Shown in pieces: positions 2-26,805 of a stretch of DNA of 35,144 bases. The notes under the pieces are model-generated. The model saw only the letters and a program-made list of their open reading frames with translations, made no database searches and was not told the origin of the DNA. Both the position numbers and the translations under genes were made by a program. The stretch lies in IMG/VR virus record IMGVR_UViG_3300042815_000183, positions 1-35,144 of that record, one strand, 5' to 3'. The first letter of the stretch is position 1. Each line of letters opens with the position of its first letter. This stretch comes from a virus (Duplodnaviria > Caudoviricetes).

Positions 2-721
2 CTCGCTGTTCTGCTTGGCCCCAGCGTTCCTGTTACCGCAGCAGGCGGTCTCGATAGAAACCGTGGAAACGCCGAAGAACTGCGTCGCTACTGGACAATT
101 GGTCGCGGTGGTCTCAAGATTCGCTGGACGACACCTGGCGACTGGACCCGCTGTGTTCGCAACCTTCGCAAGTACATGGGTCCTCGCGCTAAGGGATATT
201 GTGCTCTCCGTCACAAGGAGATGAACGGCTACTGGCCTGGCGACAAGCGGAACCGCGAAACCGGAATTATTGACGACGCTACTTACCTTGTATCAGAAGA
301 GCAGGTTCTCACGGCTGCCGTCCTTCGCGCTGAGCGCGACGAGCTTGTACAGCGTATCTCAGCTCTCCGTGCTGGTGGGCAGATTCAGACTGTCGGCGAC
401 GACTACAATTCCAGCACTTCAAACTACTTCCACCGAGATCGCATTGAAGTTCCTGAAACTATTCGTGACATGGTCGAATACGGGGACTCCGATGAGGTCG
501 AAGAAATTTTGTTTATGGACCTAATTCCCACCCAAAAGAGTGTCAACATGCGTCGAGTTGGTCGCAACTACACTTCTGACAAGCCTGTCAAAGTCTGGAA
601 AGACGACGAAGGCTACAAACTTATTGACGGCCACCACCGCTGCGTCGGCCACTACCTCAATGGTAATGACTACGTCAAAGCCAAGGTATTTAGCGCTCAC
701 GCGGAAGAAGGAGCAGAATAA
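2..721 (+). CDS. 5'-truncated head-associated multidomain protein: KIRW..PGDWTRC..GYC domain plus C-terminal ParB/Srx-like domain
   Basis: Frame 2 is open from base 2, so the track's 176 start is internal. It reads ...PVTAAGG...LKIRWTTPGDWTRCVRNLRKYMGPRAKGYCALRHKEMNGYWPG, a motif block I recall from actinophage head-region proteins. The C-terminus LIPTQ...KLIDGHHR is ParB/sulfiredoxin-like. The stop overlaps the next ATG (TAATG). Confidence 0.7.
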   Translation, partial: LAVLLGPSVPVTAAGGLDRNRGNAEELRRYWTIGRGGLKIRWTTPGDWTRCVRNLRKYMGPRAKGYCALRHKEMNGYWPGDKRNRETGIIDDATYLVSEEQVLTAAVLRAERDELVQRISALRAGGQIQTVGDDYNSSTSNYFHRDRIEVPETIRDMVEYGDSDEVEEILFMDLIPTQKSVNMRRVGRNYTSDKPVKVWKDDEGYKLIDGHHRCVGHYLNGNDYVKAKVFSAHAEEGAE

Positions 722-3606
722 TGCACAACGACAAAGAAATCCGCATGAGCGGGTCCAAGTTTGTTATTCCTCTGGTTATCCCAGAAGAGACTGAGTCGGG
801 TGATGGTCGTATGTTCCGTAAGGACGCCATCGAAATCCGTGAACTTCCTCTCCCACTCTTGTGGCAAATCAAAACTGGCTCCGGCCACGACGGCTCTGTA
901 GTTGTCGGACGCATCGATCAAATGGAGCGTACCGAAAAAGGAATTGGAAACTGCTACGGCACTTTCGATGATGGTCCCTACGGACGCGAGGCCGAGCGCC
1001 TCGTCCGAAACGGTTTTCTGCGCGGTGTTTCTGCGGATATGGATCGCTTTGAAGCGGACGATAATCGCAAAGATAAAGACAAAGATGTGTCGGATATGGC
1101 TAAAAAACCAGACAAAATCAAAAAAGACAAAATTGTTGTAAATAAGGCTCGTGTAATGGCGGTTACAATAGTATCAAAGCCCGCTTTTCAGGAGTGCCAA
1201 ATTGCTCTTGCCAATGAAGGGCAAGAAGCCTACACTCAGGAGGAAACTGTGTTGACCGATGGCGTATACGCCGACGATGCTGACCCCATGGATGCCGCGT
1301 CATTAGTGGCGTGCGGCATGGTTGCTCAGCAGATCCCCGTCGTACCACCCAAGATGTGGTTCGAAAACCCTCGCCTCGATAAGGCGACCCCACTTACCGT
1401 CTCTGATGACGGCCATGTCTACGGACACATTGCGTCGTGGGAGACTGATCACATTGGTCTTCCCTTCGGCACTAAGCCACCCCGTAGCCGTGCCAACTAT
1501 GGATACTTCCACACTGGAGTTGTTCGCGTAGATGATGGAGCTGACATCCCTGTTGGCCAGCTTACTCTTGCTGGCGGTCACGCTGATTTGACCGCGTCGG
1601 CGGCTGAAGCCGTCAAGCACTATGACGACACCGCGAGCGCAGTTGCTGACGTTCACGCTGGCGAAGACCGCTACGGAATCTGGGTTGCTGGAGCACTTCG
1701 CCCCGGAGTCCAGCCCGAGCAAGTCCGTGCGCTTCGCGCGTCATCCCCTTCGGGTGACTGGCGTCCAATCCGTGGCTCGCTCGAGCTCGTCGCTGTCTGT
1801 CAGGTCAACGTTCCCGGATTCCCGATTGCACGAGCTCGCGTTGCGTCTGGCCAGGTTATGGCGCTTGTTGCTGCTGGTGCTGCCACTCTCGCTCGTATGA
1901 AGTCCAACCCCATTGACGATCTTCAGACTCGCCTCAAGCTTCTCGAGGAGAAGGAAAAGAATGCTCTGGTTGCGGCTGCCGATAAAGCTCGCATGGACTT
2001 TGCCAACAAGAAGATGAAGTCTTACGCTCCCAACATTGACAGCCGTTTGGCAGAAATGCTCCAGCAGACTCTTGCTGATGTGTCTGTCTTCGCGGCCAAG
2101 GTTCAAGGACACCACTGGAACGTTGAAGGAATGAACTTCCCACAACTTCACGAGTTGTTTGCCACCATCTACGAAGATGTCGAGGACTCGATTGACCCTC
2201 TCGCGGAGAACATCCGCAAAATGGGATACAAGGCTCCTTTTGATCTTGCTACCTTTGCCAAAATGAGCCAGTTCGGTGAGTCTGACTTAGGACCCAACCC
2301 CACGTGCCAAGAAATGATTGCTGACCTTCACAAAGTCAACGAGAGTGTCATTGGTCTACTCAAGGCTGTATTTGACGTAGCTGACCAAGCCAACGAGCAA
2401 GGTGTTGCTGACTTCATTGCTGGACGTATCGATTCTCACCAAGAGTGGGCATGGCAGTTGCGCGTATCGCTCGCTAACCGCGAAAAAGAAGAGTATAAAG
2501 CAGAGCGTATGGATCGTATGGAAGATTCCTACGAGGACGAAGACTACGACGCGTTCTTTGCTTCTCTCTCTAGGCAGGGTGTCCCCGAAGCAGGTCTCAC
2601 GGCTAGCGCGGGCGACCTTGTTCAGCGTGCCCGCGAACTCTCGGCTATTACAGAATTTGCTAAGTTCACCTCGAAGGAGCGTGAATCTCTTGCAGACAAG
2701 GGTCAGGCTCTTCCCGATGGTTCGTACCCAATTCGCAACGAATCTGATCTGAAGAACGCTATCCAAGCATTCGGTCGATCCAAAAAGTCAGATCGCGCCA
2801 GGGTTCGTAAGCACATCACTAAGCGTGCGCGAGCTCTCGGTAAAGCAAAGATGATTCCTGAAAACTGGAAAACTGCTGCTTCGGACTCTATCACCGCAAG
2901 CCTTGAGTCGATGCGTAACCGCACTGCAATCTTGGCTTCCGCTGAAGGAGATGCAATTATTGAAGCTGTTCGCCAGATTCGCGCCGGGAACATTCCTGAC
3001 CTGACCAATGTCAATCCCAAGCAGCTAGAGATTCTCCTCCCCGGTGTCAACATCCAAGACATCCTTGACGCAAAAGAGGGGAAGAACGATGGCCGTGTCA
3101 AGTACACGCCCAAGACTCAACCCCGCGATGCTCAGGGACGATTCCGTCAGGTACTTGCTCGTTTGAAGCAGGACCTCGGTGACTCAGGTAACTCGGATGT
3201 CCTTCAAAAAATTGAAGAAATTGAGAACCTTGACAATGCTGGTGACTACTTGGCTTCTGTTATGGCATCAAAAGACCTTCTTGATATTGTTGATCGTCTC
3301 GACGCTGGCGCACTGAACGCCGAGTCCCTCGAAAATGTTCGCTCGTCCACCACAGAACTTGGACGCGCGATTGCAAACCTCCCACTACCTTTCGACAACC
3401 AAGCGCAGAAAGTTCGCTACAGCGATCTTCCTCCTACGTTGAAGAACTTGATGGACGACATGATAACCCGTGTTGAAGCCAAGATTGGGAAAGAAGACGC
3501 CGATATTGCTACCCGGGAGCTGAAAGGCTTCCAAGCAGGATCGGATGTATACAGTCAAGCAGATATTTCATCGCAGATGAACCGTTTGCTTCGATTGCTA
3601 ACTTAA
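721..3606 (+). CDS. Capsid maturation protease polyprotein (protease domain(s) + Dps domain + small basic domain + QPRD-GRF motif + helical C-terminus)
   Basis: N-terminal DGR..PLPLLWQ..GH56DG..LRGVS104AD..VTIVSKPAF pattern of HK97/assemblin-type prohead proteases; lies directly before the major capsid gene; 961 aa. Confidence 0.85.
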   Translation: MHNDKEIRMSGSKFVIPLVIPEETESGDGRMFRKDAIEIRELPLPLLWQIKTGSGHDGSVVVGRIDQMERTEKGIGNCYGTFDDGPYGREAERLVRNGFLRGVSADMDRFEADDNRKDKDKDVSDMAKKPDKIKKDKIVVNKARVMAVTIVSKPAFQECQIALANEGQEAYTQEETVLTDGVYADDADPMDAASLVACGMVAQQIPVVPPKMWFENPRLDKATPLTVSDDGHVYGHIASWETDHIGLPFGTKPPRSRANYGYFHTGVVRVDDGADIPVGQLTLAGGHADLTASAAEAVKHYDDTASAVADVHAGEDRYGIWVAGALRPGVQPEQVRALRASSPSGDWRPIRGSLELVAVCQVNVPGFPIARARVASGQVMALVAAGAATLARMKSNPIDDLQTRLKLLEEKEKNALVAAADKARMDFANKKMKSYAPNIDSRLAEMLQQTLADVSVFAAKVQGHHWNVEGMNFPQLHELFATIYEDVEDSIDPLAENIRKMGYKAPFDLATFAKMSQFGESDLGPNPTCQEMIADLHKVNESVIGLLKAVFDVADQANEQGVADFIAGRIDSHQEWAWQLRVSLANREKEEYKAERMDRMEDSYEDEDYDAFFASLSRQGVPEAGLTASAGDLVQRARELSAITEFAKFTSKERESLADKGQALPDGSYPIRNESDLKNAIQAFGRSKKSDRARVRKHITKRARALGKAKMIPENWKTAASDSITASLESMRNRTAILASAEGDAIIEAVRQIRAGNIPDLTNVNPKQLEILLPGVNIQDILDAKEGKNDGRVKYTPKTQPRDAQGRFRQVLARLKQDLGDSGNSDVLQKIEEIENLDNAGDYLASVMASKDLLDIVDRLDAGALNAESLENVRSSTTELGRAIANLPLPFDNQAQKVRYSDLPPTLKNLMDDMITRVEAKIGKEDADIATRELKGFQAGSDVYSQADISSQMNRLLRLLT
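2041..2472 (+). other. dps: Dps (mini-ferritin) domain embedded in the protease ORF, aa ~441-584
   Basis: HHWNVEGMNFPQLHELF...IDPLAENIR...HQEWAWQL. H465, H477, D492 and E496 have the 12/15/4 spacing of the Dps ferroxidase ligands (Listeria H31/H43/D58/E62), with W466 following the first His. Confidence 0.93.
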
Positions 3607-3725: not shown

Positions 3726-5720
3726 GTGGATTCTTTTAAGAACCAACTGGACCGACTGTCCGAACTGAACGACGAGCAAGTCTCGGAACTTCAGGCGGGC
3801 ATCATCACCGAGTTCGAGTCTATCGACGAGAACGGCGATCTCACACCTGAGTCAGTGGATGCCATGACAACTCTAGCGGACATGCTAGAGACAGTCCGTG
3901 GTGAGGTGCAGCGCCGCGAGGCGCAGGCCGAGGAACTTGTTTCCATAGCCGCCGAAGCCACTAATCGAGTATATGGTGATGGAGAATCTGAAGAGATGAT
4001 CCCCGCCGAGGAAGAAGAGGAAGCCCCAATGGCTACTGAACCAGAAATGGTAGAGGAGACCGAAGAGCCCACCGCTCCAACTGAGGACGAGATCGTTGAA
4101 GAAGTTCCAATGACTATGCCCGAAGAGGACGAAGACGAAATGTCTGAGGCATCGACTGTCTCCGATGAGAATGCCGAATTCTCGACGGATGAAGAACCCG
4201 AGGTTGTAGAAGAAGTACTGGATGGATCGGCTGATGTCGATGCTCCTGTTGCCGAATTCTCAACTGATGAGGAAGTCGTCCCTGCTGAAACAGCAGAACC
4301 CGCCCCCGCCGAAGAGGCTCCCGCAGGCGAAGAAGCAGTTGTTGCTTCCGTCGAGGGTGCTGACGAGGCTGAGGCACCAACCGAAGAAATCACCGACATT
4401 GCGCCCGAGGCGCAGGAAGAGGCACCCGTGACCGCCGCAGCAGAAGGAGCTTTCGAAGCTCCAGCAGACCGCCGTCCAGTTGCTCAGGTTGCACCCGTAA
4501 CACCCGTTGCTATTACAGCGGGCGCGGACATCCCTGGCTACACGGCTGGAAGCACCCTTACAGACATGTCGGAGGTGGCACAGGCTTTTGAAAAGCGCCT
4601 GCACACCCTCCGTCGCGTCAATGGTGGAGATGGAGAACAGCACATCGTTGCATCCCTCTCGACCCAGTACCCCGAAGCCCGCACCTTGGGCTCAGACCCC
4701 GAAGAGAACCGCGCAAAGATCCAAGCAGTTGTCGGCCCTGAGGCCCTCATCGCTTCCGGTGGTTTTGCAACGCCTCTCGAGGTCAAGTACGACGTCTTCG
4801 GACTCGGAACGAGCATTCGTCCCGTCCGTGACTCGCTCCCCCGTTTCCAGGCAGACCGTGGCGGTATCCGCTACGTCACTCCTCCAGTGCTCTCGTCTTA
4901 CGCGAACGCTGTTGGTGTGTGGACCGCTGCTAACGACTCAGCAGCAAGCCCTGACCCCGCGTCAAAGCTTTCGCTGACCGTTACTGCTGCTGCTGAATTG
5001 ACTGCCGTCACCGACGCTGTCACTCTGCAGATGCAGTTTGGTAACCTGTTTACCCGCGCGTACCCCGAGCTCCTCGCTCGCCACAACGAGCTTGGCTTGA
5101 TCCAGCACGCTCGTGAGGCAGAGCAGAACCTGCTCTCGCGTATCGCAACTGACTCGACAGCAGTTACAACCACAAGCCTCATCGGCTTTGGTCGCGACTT
5201 CCTCGTTCAGATCCGTCGTGCAGCCGCAGCTTACCGCTCGCGTCACCGTATCGAAGCTAGCACCCAGCTCCGCGCCATCATCCCTGACTGGGTATATGAC
5301 GCAGTTGCAGCGGACCTCACGCTCGCAATGCCTGGTGACAGCACGATCTCGATCTCGATGTCGGAAATCAACGGATACCTTGCCACCTCGAACGTGACGC
5401 TCGTCGCTTCGCTCGACTCGTCGGTCTTCGGCTCGCAGAGTGCTGCTGCACTCCTCGAGTTCCCTGACTCGTTCGTTTGGTACCTGTTTGCTGAAGGAAC
5501 CTTCGTCTTCCTTGACGGTGGAACCCTCGACCTCGGTATCATCCGTGACTCGACCCTCGTCGGAACCAACGACTACAAGATGTTCGTTGAAACCTTCGAA
5601 GGCGTCGCCAAGGTTGGTGTCGAGTCTCTCGCCATCACCTCGACGATCAACGTCAACGGTACCGCCGCAGCACTCCGTGACACCACGGGTAACACCGCTG
5701 CAGCAACCATCGAGTACTAA
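3726..5720 (+). CDS. Major capsid (hexamer-type) protein with long acidic N-terminal scaffold-like extension
   Basis: 664 aa; helical then E/A/P-rich N-terminal ~300 aa, followed by ALIASGG..P...RDSLPRFQADRGGIRY and GGTLDLGIIRDSTLVGTNDY..FVETFEG motifs typical of Rosebush-like major capsids; strong SD. Confidence 0.88.
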   Translation: MDSFKNQLDRLSELNDEQVSELQAGIITEFESIDENGDLTPESVDAMTTLADMLETVRGEVQRREAQAEELVSIAAEATNRVYGDGESEEMIPAEEEEEAPMATEPEMVEETEEPTAPTEDEIVEEVPMTMPEEDEDEMSEASTVSDENAEFSTDEEPEVVEEVLDGSADVDAPVAEFSTDEEVVPAETAEPAPAEEAPAGEEAVVASVEGADEAEAPTEEITDIAPEAQEEAPVTAAAEGAFEAPADRRPVAQVAPVTPVAITAGADIPGYTAGSTLTDMSEVAQAFEKRLHTLRRVNGGDGEQHIVASLSTQYPEARTLGSDPEENRAKIQAVVGPEALIASGGFATPLEVKYDVFGLGTSIRPVRDSLPRFQADRGGIRYVTPPVLSSYANAVGVWTAANDSAASPDPASKLSLTVTAAAELTAVTDAVTLQMQFGNLFTRAYPELLARHNELGLIQHAREAEQNLLSRIATDSTAVTTTSLIGFGRDFLVQIRRAAAAYRSRHRIEASTQLRAIIPDWVYDAVAADLTLAMPGDSTISISMSEINGYLATSNVTLVASLDSSVFGSQSAAALLEFPDSFVWYLFAEGTFVFLDGGTLDLGIIRDSTLVGTNDYKMFVETFEGVAKVGVESLAITSTINVNGTAAALRDTTGNTAAATIEY

Positions 5721-22600: not shown

Positions 22601-23384
22601 ACTGTTGTTCTCGACTCGGGAGGCGTCTGGAATTAACACCGACCCACCCATTCATCGCGGCTTTGAACTCACGACTGTTGGGGAGGCGCTGGAGAAGTAC
22701 GCATCGTCCGTAGACGGATTCGACTATCGCATTGACTGTGAGTACGACGAGTCGACCATGACCTTCACCAAGACTTTTGTTATGCTCCCCCTTGAGTACC
22801 CCAATCCGCCAGAGGCAGGTGTGGTATCTCCCGTTAGTCGATATGGGGCTGACGAGGTTATCTTTGAGTACCCTGGAAATATTGGAAAGTTCTCCGTCAA
22901 CGAAAGTGCAGAGAATGCGTCTACGCGAATGTTTGTGGTTGGTAACGAAAACGCTGGCGACGACTACGGCTCGAACATTGGTGTCGCTGCCTTGACTGAC
23001 TTCCTCGATGGATCGCGTGGACGCAAGTGGCCCCTCCTCGACTTTGACGAGAAGGCCGACGACGCCAACAACAAGACTATTTTGTACGGATACGCCCGAC
23101 GCTACGCCCTCGAGGCCGCACCTCCAATGGCCGAATTTTCCATTAGCGTGAACGGGGCGCTAGAACCAATTGTTGGATCATATGCTCCTGGTGACTGGTG
23201 CAGTATTGTTGTTCGAGACCCGTTCATTCAGGCTCGACTGAGCACTGACCTTGAGCCTCGTGATACCGTGCTAGTCCGTAAAATTGAGTCCTACTCGGTC
23301 TCAGTTCCAGACGGTGTGACCTTCCCCGAGGAAGTAACGCTGACAGTTATTCCTGAGTGGGAGGTGGATGGCTTTGGCGACTAG
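19680..23384 (+). CDS. Baseplate hub/Tal-like minor tail protein with about 10 inserted beta-modules
   Basis: N-terminal [17 protein letters not shown]...[23 protein letters not shown] and C-terminal FEYPGNI...GSYAPGDW motifs of actinophage minor tail proteins; central AHG..G repeats. Confidence 0.75.
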
Positions 23385-26300
23385 ACGCGTACGACGTAAC
23401 CGCAATGTCGGAAACAAGCTCAACGATCTCGAGTCGAGGGTTGACTCCAATGAGAAGAAGAAGATTCAAGATAACTCTGTTGGGGCTGCTCAGATTGCCA
23501 ATCAAGGTGTTGCCACCGACAACGTCCAAGATCGAGCCGTAACCAGCAACAAGATTGAGCTAGGTGCAATTAGCACCGAGCACTTGTCGCAGATCACTTC
23601 GCTGTCATCAGGTGGAGATTTGTCTTTGAATCTAGGCGATGAGGGCCATGTCGTACTTAATGGTGTCCGGTACGAATCTCCATATGACTCACTAGCAAGT
23701 GCTACTGGATTATATAGCTTAGCGTTTGATCCAGACACTAATGAAGTTTTAGTTTACCCGCAGCAACCTGGCGGCGATGCAGTCCTTACCCCCAGCGAGA
23801 TGAACTGGAAGCAGGTTACTGGAACCGGGACAACATCTGCCAACCCTACGCCACCTGTAACGCTTCTTGTTTTTGACAGTGACGGGACATATGTTCAGCC
23901 GAACAGTCCCCTTGTAACTGTTGGCGGTGCGGTTCTTGTTAGTGTGTCTGGGTATGTTCACGCAAACTCGACCCCACGAAGCTGGGTTGTTCAGTTGTAT
24001 CGAGGTAGCACTGCTATCGGCGTACAGCACTCATACGATTTCGACACAAGCAATGATGATTTAGCATTTGAGTTTAGTTTTATTGATGATGTAGCCGCTG
24101 GGACATATGTGTACTCCCTACGTCTAGTTAGCTCCCCCGCTGGAAGTCTTGACTGGTCTGCAGAAATGAATGTCATCGAGCTGATGGGATCCGTCGGGCC
24201 ACAGGGTAATACAGGAGTAACAGGCCCTACGGGCGCGATTGGTGCAACCGGAATTACGGGTCCAACAGGATCAGTAGGAGCTACTGGAGTTGCTGGTAAT
24301 ACTGGAGTAACAGGATCAACAGGTGCTATCGGAGTCACTGGCGCAACTGGCGCAACCGGATCAACTGGTGCCGTCGGTGCCACAGGTGCGGTAGGCGCGA
24401 CTGGTGCTGTCGGTAATACGGGCGCAGTTGGGGATACAGGAACAACTGGTGCCGTTGGACCAACAGGACCAACAGGCGCAACAGGTCCCACTGGCTCTAC
24501 AGGTGCAACAGGAGCAGGTGGGGCACTAGGCTACTACGGCTCGTTCTACGACATGACCGACCAACAACTTGCTTCTATTTCTGCGGAGCAAGTCATTGCA
24601 ATCGGTACCACGTCGGAGTCAAACGGCGTGAGCATCCAAAACGGCGACGAAGTTACATTTGCTTACGCTGGAACCTACAGCCTCACATTTTCTATCCAAA
24701 TTACCAACTATGCTAACTCTGTAGAGAAAGCAATTTTCTGGCTAAAGACAAATAACGTCGACTACCCAGACTCTGCCACTGAAATAGATTTACAGCCACG
24801 CAAAGCGGCAGACAACCCTAACCGCCAAGTAATCACAATCAACTATGTTGCAACTGCAACAGCGGGACAACAAGTACAGGTTTACTGGTCTGGCTCAAGC
24901 ACTCAACTTCGAGTAGAGTCCCTGCCCGCTGGCACGTCGCCAGTCTCTCCCGCAGTCCCGTCAATCATTCTTACCGCAGTACAGGTTATGTACACTCAAC
25001 TTGGACCGACGGGTGCTGTCGGCGCTACTGGTGTGACGGGACCCACGGGCGCTGTCGGGCCAACGGGCGCTCAAGGCGTAACTGGTCCGACTGGCTCGCA
25101 GGGTATTCAGGGAGTTACTGGACCGACAGGCGCACAAGGCATTCAAGGCATTCAAGGTCCGACTGGCGCACAAGGTTTGACGGGTGCCACGGGTCCGACT
25201 GGCGCTACGGGCGAGACGGGGGCAGTAGGAAATACTGGGGCAACTGGAACCAATGGAATTGACGGTGCTACTGGTGCTCAAGGAAATACTGGTGTAACTG
25301 GGGCAACAGGGGCAGTCGGAAATACTGGACCAACTGGCGCAATCGGTAATACGGGTGCACAAGGTGAAACTGGAGCTGTTGGTCCCACTGGTTCAGTTGG
25401 TAATACTGGAGCACAAGGAGTTACAGGTGCAACTGGCGCAGTAGGTAACACAGGCGTTACTGGACCAACGGGTGCTGACTCAACTGTTGTTGGACCAACA
25501 GGAGCTGTCGGTCCGACTGGTGCTGTAGGTGCTACTGGAAATACTGGATCACAAGGCAACACTGGTCCAACAGGTGCTGTCGGAGATACAGGTGCTGTCG
25601 GAAATACTGGAGCAGTAGGAAACACGGGTGCAACTGGTGCTGATAGTACGGTTGCTGGGCCTACGGGCGCAGTCGGGGCAACGGGTGCGGTGGGCGCGAC
25701 TGGTGCTACTGGTGCAACAGGTGCTACTGGTCCTACGGGTGCCGATAGTACGGTTGCTGGGCCTCAAGGAAACACTGGAGCAACAGGAGCAACAGGTCCT
25801 ACAGGCGCGGACTCAACAGTAGCTGGTCCTACGGGAAATACTGGTGTGACAGGATCAACAGGATCAACAGGATCAACTGGTTCAACTGGTGCAACAGGTT
25901 CGACAGGGCCAACCGGCCCAACACCATCTTCTTCAGTAATACTTCGTCTAACCGTCACGGGTGGGACGTCAGTAGACCTTACTGGCGCACCTGCAATTGT
26001 CTATGCTGTACTTGCAGCAGGTGGCGGTGGAGGAGGCGGCACCAGCGGCGCTACCTCGGTAGCTGCTGGTGGGGGTGGGGCAGGAGCCGTAGTTTCAGGC
26101 TGGGTGCCTGCACTAAGCACAGTCACCCTTGGAGCCGGCGGCTCGGGGGGAACTACGACGGCTGGCGGAACCGGAGGAACCTCGTACTATTCTGGGCTGG
26201 TCGCTTTTGGGGGAGCTGGCGGTGGACTCGGCGGAGGGGTCGGTTCGGCTGGGTCTAACGGTTCAGCCGGCGGAGGCGGCGGCGGAAGCACGACAGTCGG

Positions 26301-26805
26301 ATTTGCTGGAGGCGCATCAAGTTCAATCGGGTACAACGTCGGCGGATCGGGCGGAGCTGGAGTTTTTGCAGCTGCTTTTGCAGGAGGAACTGATGGTACA
26401 CCCGGAAGCTCTGGAGGAGGTGGTGGATCAGCGGTGACTTCTGGAACAGCAAGCAACTCTGGAGGTGGGACTGGCGGAACCGGACTGGCTGGAGGTGGCG
26501 GTGGCGGGGCGTACAACACGTCGGCCTCAAACACCGGAACTGCTGACGGCGGCTCCGGAGGAGCTAGTTTTAGATTCTCTGGTGGGTCTACTGCCGTATC
26601 TGGGAGCAGTACAGGAGTTAAAGGCTCATCTGGAGCTGGTGGCGCTGGAATTGCAGCTGCTGGCTCAAACGGAGCTTCAGGTACAGGATCAGGAGCACGT
26701 ACCGGAGGAGCCGGAGGAGCCGGAGGAGGCGGAGGCGGAGGAGCCGCAGGCCTTTCCGCAACTGGCGGCGCTGGCGGAGCCGGTGCGCTCCTTCTGTACT
26801 GGTAG
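23368..26805 (+). CDS. Collagen-like tail fibre with C-terminal glycine-rich domain
   Basis: Two long Gly-X-Y blocks (about 24187-24520 and 25003-25923; [12 protein letters not shown]) flanking a YYGSFYD beta-domain; Gly-rich C-terminus ending LLYW; 17-nt overlap with the upstream gene. Confidence 0.85.
25849..25875 (+). repeat. 9-bp tandem repeat (acaggatca)x3 within the collagen block
   Basis: acaggatca acaggatca acaggatca, encoding TGS x3. Confidence 0.75.

Follow-up and report, generated by a model that had tools for sequence, protein, structure and literature searches.

A complete Dps mini-ferritin domain was found in frame inside the head-maturation protease polyprotein of a tailed phage, and this fusion is real, conserved and widespread, and combines two things that are each already known. 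We propose, with a probability of about 0.55, that the Dps domain is a processed cargo of the phage head that would serve as a sink for iron and peroxide and not as a DNA-binding coat, as suggested by sequence, structure models and analogy with other phages. The window, which is the whole stretch of 35,144 nucleotides analysed here (IMG/VR record IMGVR_UViG_3300042815_000183; Duplodnaviria; Caudoviricetes), is a linear virus record that is about 20% complete and in which head genes are followed by tail genes and then by replication genes. The head region contains the following features.

2..721, + strand: upstream head-region ORF, truncated at its 5' end, with phrog_6439 and ParB-like modules and 2 motif copies
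721..3606, + strand: head-maturation protease polyprotein, a single open frame of 961 aa immediately upstream of the major capsid gene
742..1230, + strand: protease domain 1, S78/HK97-like (aa 8-170), with Pfam S78 and TIGR01543 matches below their cut-offs and invariant H56/S104
1318..1896, + strand: conserved domain 2 (aa 200-392), matching PHROG 18402 'head maturation protease' at E 5e-59, with H287 and S344 invariant
1864..1878, + strand: motif LVAAG (aa 382-386), predicted cleavage site closing domain 2
1966..1980, + strand: motif LVAAA (aa 416-420), predicted cleavage site ahead of Dps
2005..2019, + strand: NKKMK basic patch (aa 429-433)
2041..2472, + strand: Dps mini-ferritin domain (aa 441-584), identified by Pfam, PHROG, a solved relative and a structure model
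2113-2115, 2149-2151, 2194-2196 and 2206-2208, + strand: ferroxidase codons H465, H477, D492 and E496, read from the sequence
2476..2652, + strand: acidic linker, net charge about -7
2596-2610, + strand: motif LTASA (aa 626-630), predicted cleavage site behind Dps
2653..2886, + strand: small helical X module (aa 645-722), at least one copy of which occurs in every listed homologue
3088..3603, + strand: helical C-terminal module (aa 790-961), a separate gene in phage DSL-LC01
3726..5720, + strand: major capsid protein (PHROG 777); long acidic prodomain, 5 motif copies
4746-4760, + strand: fourth capsid motif, LIASG (aa 341), putative start of the mature capsid part

The modules of the polyprotein are arranged in the order of S78-like protease (aa 8-170), domain 2 (200-392), helical linker, Dps, acidic linker, X (645-722) and helical C-terminal module (790-961), and in many relatives the counterpart of the upstream ORF at 2..721 belongs to the protease polyprotein itself. 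Domain 1 matched Pfam S78 over aa 55-171 with an E value of 6e-4 and 20.4 bits, slightly below the cut-off of 21 that is passed by the homologues P0029 (23.9 bits) and P0098 (21.9 bits), and it matched TIGR01543 with an E value of 3e-4, below the cut-off of that model. H56 and S104 are kept in 31/31 homologues, and we infer that they form the catalytic pair of domain 1. Domain 2 is possibly a second, tandem protease; it gave no match by BLAST or hhalign, the profile comparisons being shallow, and the confidence of its model is low (pLDDT <50). The whole-protein model has a pTM of 0.28, and fold searches with it recovered only Dps. Some phages of Gordonia, such as Forza, align to domain 2 alone (1318-1896). 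The X module, a candidate head-targeting module, matched 4529 clusters at E<=0.001 and is often repeated, and no Pfam or NCBIfam family name was found for it. The C-terminal module may be scaffold-like. Among 75 scanned carriers of X, some also have S78, XkdF or DUF2213 proteases, ChaB, NUDIX, 2'-5' RNA ligase or ADP-ribosyltransferase.

The nearest relative of the 961-aa protein in GenBank comes from the metagenome-assembled lake phage DSL-LC01 (62% across 70% of the protein), followed by those of the Microbacterium phages Big4, Cece, Zooman, Pumpernickel and A3Wally at 56-58% and, further down the match list, of hundreds of Arthrobacter, Gordonia and Mycobacterium phages. Since these relatives are mainly actinobacterial phages, we infer that the host of the window phage is also actinobacterial. 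An actinobacterial host was predicted for DSL-LC01 in a paper whose available text does not mention ferritin or Dps (PMC10611076), and Dps is absent from the protease of the closest GenBank phages, namely DSL-LC01 and the Microbacterium Cece group. A head-region protein of DSL-LC01 (L001 4856-5590) is annotated as 'high potential iron-sulfur protein', and a Cys module resembling it appears to sit inside protein P0274, beside Dps. The window also encodes a tail fibre of 1145 aa with collagen repeats (23368-26805).

A preliminary description of this DNA had proposed a complete Dps domain at aa 441-584, to be checked by a profile search, and this was borne out. Pfam Ferritin PF00210 matched aa 445-584 with an E value of 3.2e-19 and 69.7 bits (cut-off 24.5), PHROG 3636 matched aa 442-584, and the best solved relative was the Pseudomonas aeruginosa Dps 8ff9 (PA0962), with an E value of 4.2e-21 across aa 442-585. 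The NCBIfam Dps equivalog models, which are lineage-specific, scored 41-47 bits, below their cut-offs of 114-300. The AlphaFold model of the domain (pLDDT 96.9) shows four long helices and a short BC helix (2-27, 33-60, 69-75, 89-116 and 120-144 in domain numbering). When we compared this model with 8ff9, the TM score was 0.92 and the rmsd was 1.5 Å, and the top 7 rows of VIA-align were all Dps-family proteins with Z values of 20-21.

The ferroxidase residues H465, W466, H477, D492 and E496 correspond to H37, W38, H49, D64 and E68 of 8ff9 in the sequence alignment, so that all five residues that had been named at first are present at canonical spacing. H465, H477, D492 and E496 are invariant in 28/28 fused copies and in 120/120 short relatives, and W466 is retained in 27/28 fused copies. 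The phage domain thus shares with cellular Dps proteins (8ff9, Brevibacillus brevis 1n1q and Listeria 1qgh) the four-helix bundle with its BC helix and the H-W-x10-H and D-x3-E inter-subunit ligands. However, these proteins are at most 33% identical to the phage domain, which has acidic tails, sits inside a viral polyprotein, and contains A481 and N497 where 8ff9 has E53 and R69, respectively. Position 481 thereby lacks an acidic side chain close to the metal site and position 497 lacks a conserved Arg, so the activity or assembly of the phage domain may differ from that of cellular Dps. Most fused copies have Gly or Ala at the auxiliary acidic position 481, and Asn occupies position 497 in 25/28 fused copies and 118/120 short relatives; N497 is therefore a trait of the clade and not a sign of decay. 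A sequence comparison with locus L007 showed that the Dps domain is under purifying selection, with a dN/dS of 0.12 versus 0.04-0.10 for the other folded modules (one pair).

The fusion could have been an assembly chimera, which we ruled out: the same fusion occurs in the separately assembled proteins P0001-P0003 and locus L007, and contigs cross both Dps junctions within the region 2000-2500. One contig of run X1, a possible source run, covers 1500-3100. Contigs of X2, from the same study and with 0 differences, and of X4, from a different study and with 22 differences, also span the 5' junction. The 3' junction is spanned by X1 only, and run X7 yielded no matching contig.

Of 1976 homologues, the 120 with the highest scores were compared, a ranking that favours Dps carriers; Dps was present in 27 of them and absent from the others, and its slot was always between domain 2 and X. 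The gap between these two modules is mostly 80-130 aa without Dps and about 300 aa with it. What had been taken for a single oddity is a real and conserved fusion, and Dps recurs as a cassette of this modular polyprotein. Including the window's own, 63 fused proteins were collected from several source collections. In a tree of the protease part with 149 rows, 56 of them with Dps and 93 without (7/156 were left out as incomplete), the presence of Dps required 3 changes compared with 45 when labels were shuffled, and Dps fell into three clades with no scattered losses; it was therefore gained or lost rarely and then kept. A tblastn search of the Dps domain against 50,697 GenBank phage records gave 22 distant matches (23-38% identity). 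The annotation of none of them names a protease fusion, and in none of the 50,697 records does this Dps lie inside the protease. The literature searched, mostly openly accessible papers, yielded no description of a Dps-protease fusion, which agrees with the impression first recorded for this sequence.

The predicted processing motif, [LIV][TVIL]A[ASGC][AGV], was picked by eye from the same head genes in which it was counted, and the count of 13 copies in three head ORFs (0.8 expected) versus 7 in 19 other ORFs (5.2 expected) is therefore post hoc. We also counted the motif in 60 of the 63 Dps-bearing homologues (3 fragments were dropped), with expectations taken from shuffles. It stands at the end of domain 2 in 60/60 (5.6 expected), in the linker before Dps in 34/60 (1.6 expected) and in the linker after Dps in 33/60 (0.9 expected), and it occurs within Dps in 0/60 (2.7 expected). 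The motif is probably the cleavage site of the head protease; herpes assemblin, which cuts between A and S of V/L-x-A-S sites, offers a similar pattern. Cece gp70 bears 13 copies, and a motif of Rosebush gp15 aligns with aa 341 of the window capsid protein. The capsid prodomain of about 340 aa (window 3726-4760) has a very acidic stretch and repeated motif copies, and no solved capsid relative that could fix the mature N-terminus was found. The copy at aa 290 of the polyprotein falls within domain 2 and may not be cut. With motifs flanking the domain at aa 416 and 626, it is plausible that Dps is freed by self-processing, as had been suggested, and the predicted released piece (aa 419-628) would have a mass of 23.7 kDa, a pI of 4.6 and a net charge of about -17. 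In 15/60 fused copies no site follows Dps even under a looser pattern, and in these the X module would stay attached.

Prohead proteases act inside the shell, and HK97 gp4 co-assembles into the procapsid. By analogy, loading of Dps into the head is plausible: the modular polyprotein, including Dps, would be carried into the procapsid along with its protease, and Dps would be cut free at the Ala-small motifs on either side as a folded piece of about 24 kDa that could not leave the head. The Dps subunits would then pair and oxidise Fe(II) with H2O2, so that the packaged DNA, or the newly infected cell in case Dps is ejected, would suffer less Fenton damage. Slight support from virions comes from Rosebush gp13, a homologue (32% over aa 26-385) that has no Dps and was detected in purified virions with 17 spectra and 11.4% coverage in band 3 (PMC7150772 supplement), the most spectra of any Rosebush phage protein in that band, and with 2 spectra in band 1, 3 in band 2 and none in band 4. 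BSA made up 52-76% of the spectra in bands 1-3 of this preparation, in which the capsid protein was barely seen, and peptide positions are not given in the available parts of that source (PMC7150772).

The window Dps is a member of a clade that is specific to phages and associated with head genes. With patterns from an alignment of the window domain and 59 close relatives, about 1500 stored IMG/VR stretches are estimated to match. In a tree, 12 cellular rows were split from the phage clade by a long branch with a support of 100. Recent capture from a host is not supported, as the clearly cellular GTDB matches are at best 32-41% identical among the matches listed in this pattern-limited scan. 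The Dps part has a GC content of 0.51, within the range of the other modules (0.49-0.60). Three of the top GTDB matches, L087-L089, from bins labelled Gammaproteobacteria, Betaproteobacteria and Actinomycetota, lie among phage head modules, and two of them have Dps fused to an HK97-type protease.

When we surveyed the best 80 viral loci, near-duplicates included, 45 had Dps inside a head protease or directly behind a portal or protease gene, HK97-type proteases included: 4 are fused in the protease type of the window, 3 lie in an HK97-type protease flanked by the portal and capsid genes, 34 are immediately behind the portal gene and 4 immediately behind a protease-like gene. Of the other loci, 14 have a head or packaging gene no more than 6 kb away on their own strand, 17 are neighbours of replication genes and are encoded on the other strand from the tail genes, and 4 were left unclassified. 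Dps is N-terminal to the HK97-type protease in the P0252 group, L075, L081, L088 and L089 and C-terminal to it in L064 and P0321. The 113 new long proteins comprise 71 with Dps first (a group mostly with DUF5824), 35 of the window's family, 6 single S78 proteases to which Dps is joined at one end or the other, and 1 unassigned. The motif occurs somewhere after Dps in 66 of the 71 Dps-first proteins (7.3 expected). Independent origins of the protease fusions were considered and not adopted, as a single clade of 33 fused rows stays compatible with the data (p-AU 0.51). Cys-rich segments, called metallothionein-like from their sequence pattern alone, adjoin Dps in 61/71 DUF5824-type, 9/63 tandem-protease and 3/120 short proteins and point to metal handling; the window's own protein has none. 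Examples directly attached to Dps are found in P0282, P0246, P0008, P0024 and P0137. Related unfused Dps genes occur in T4-like phages, between the small and large terminase genes (L004 1981-2415) and beside a large cytidylyltransferase-domain protein (L005 9968-10414), and P0294 (866 aa), with an N-terminal Dps and an otherwise unassigned body, is a further fusion type.

The most serious competitor of a packaged iron and peroxide sink is a late-expressed cytoplasmic stress gene, in which the head operon would be used just for strong late expression and Dps, cut off or left outside the shell, would protect both the infected cell and the DNA that is undergoing packaging against ROS. We consider this less likely, though well worth weighing. 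In its favour, 70/80 viral loci encode short unfused Dps ORFs (<=230 aa) with no evident targeting signal, which weakens packaging as the whole point of the clade, and 32 of these ORFs come immediately after the portal gene. The 17 loci beside replication genes, the 15/60 fused copies that lack even a loose site after Dps and the closest GenBank phages, which do without Dps, likewise speak against packaged cargo. Phage ferritin or Dps has been proposed as a ROS defence of the host (PMC6802176 and PMC8008677, in their available text). On the contrary, an in-frame slot between the protease and the C-terminal head modules exceeds what co-expression needs, if proteases act inside the shell, and the fusion was kept through whole clades and is present in two protease types. 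A role in assembly or iron delivery, in which Dps oligomers would bring protease and scaffold modules together inside the procapsid or supply the next host with a load of iron, seems to us a good deal less probable. Dps proteins assemble as 12-mers, which would gather the attached modules, and the Cys-rich neighbours could hold metal too, but the invariant catalytic ligands favour chemistry over scaffolding alone, and since 93/149 members of the protease tree have no Dps, the domain is not needed for assembly.

The suggestion that the domain binds DNA through a basic tail did not hold up. The NKKMK stretch before Dps and the acidic linker after it are both present as first described, and NKKMK lies inside the predicted released piece of the window protein and of its three closest relatives. 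However, this patch is conserved solely among the closest relatives, the 25-residue stretch ahead of Dps carries a net positive charge in just 6/60 homologues, the C-terminal linker is never net positive, and the released fragment is acidic, so that the conserved basic terminal tail of DNA-binding Dps of the E. coli type is lacking and a DNA shield is very improbable. That Dps is a neutral passenger or an artefact is, in our estimate, next to negligible: its absence from the closest GenBank phages and the bridging of the 3' junction by the possible source run alone would fit, but the 63 fused proteins from several collections, the invariant ligands and the dN/dS of 0.12 argue against it.

For a packaged iron and peroxide sink, a cellular counterpart is the encapsulin, an HK97-fold shell that holds a ferritin-family iron enzyme loaded via a tag or by fusion. 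Encapsulins are cellular compartments without DNA, tail or maturation protease, and are thus only an analogy to the phage head. The internal head proteins of T4 are processed at a short motif by the head protease, and so are those of phiKZ (bioRxiv 10.1101/2025.11.23.690004, available text); some of this cargo is injected. Both systems differ from the window phage in protease family and motif, and their cargo comes from separate genes. Enzyme cargo fused to actinophage head proteins is already known from VIP2-MuF (PMC7302621, available text). Related phage head proteases have the same two-domain core and motif as the window protein, and the window cargo, unlike the known extra enzyme domains of head proteins, is proposed to be protective and not a toxin. 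Phage genes for Dps or ferritin have been read as ROS defence in Gratiaviridae (PMC8008677), Lactobacillus phages (PMC6669764) and freshwater phages (PMC6802176); these are also Dps-type genes in phages, but the available parts of these papers describe aid to the infected host and mention no head-protease fusion or virion location. PMC7354516 concerns host dps only.

More tentatively, and appreciably short of even odds, we suggest that the phage-only Dps lineage as a whole may serve the virion: the capsid would double as an encapsulin-like iron and peroxide compartment, with Dps inserted into the maturation protease of several head architectures that are unrelated to one another, often beside a metallothionein-like segment, and this would slow the oxidative decay of free virions or deliver an antioxidant with the genome. 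The motif defines the exact fragments to seek by mass spectrometry. Ferritin genes of phages have so far been interpreted, in the available text of the papers, as help for the infected host (PMC8008677, PMC6669764 and PMC6802176). If the clade is virion cargo, it would provide a functional link between phage heads and ferritin-loaded encapsulins, it would matter for how fast viruses decay and how iron cycles in water, given the estimated 1500 or so matching IMG/VR stretches, and a particle thought to be an inert carrier would carry an active defence against iron and peroxide damage.
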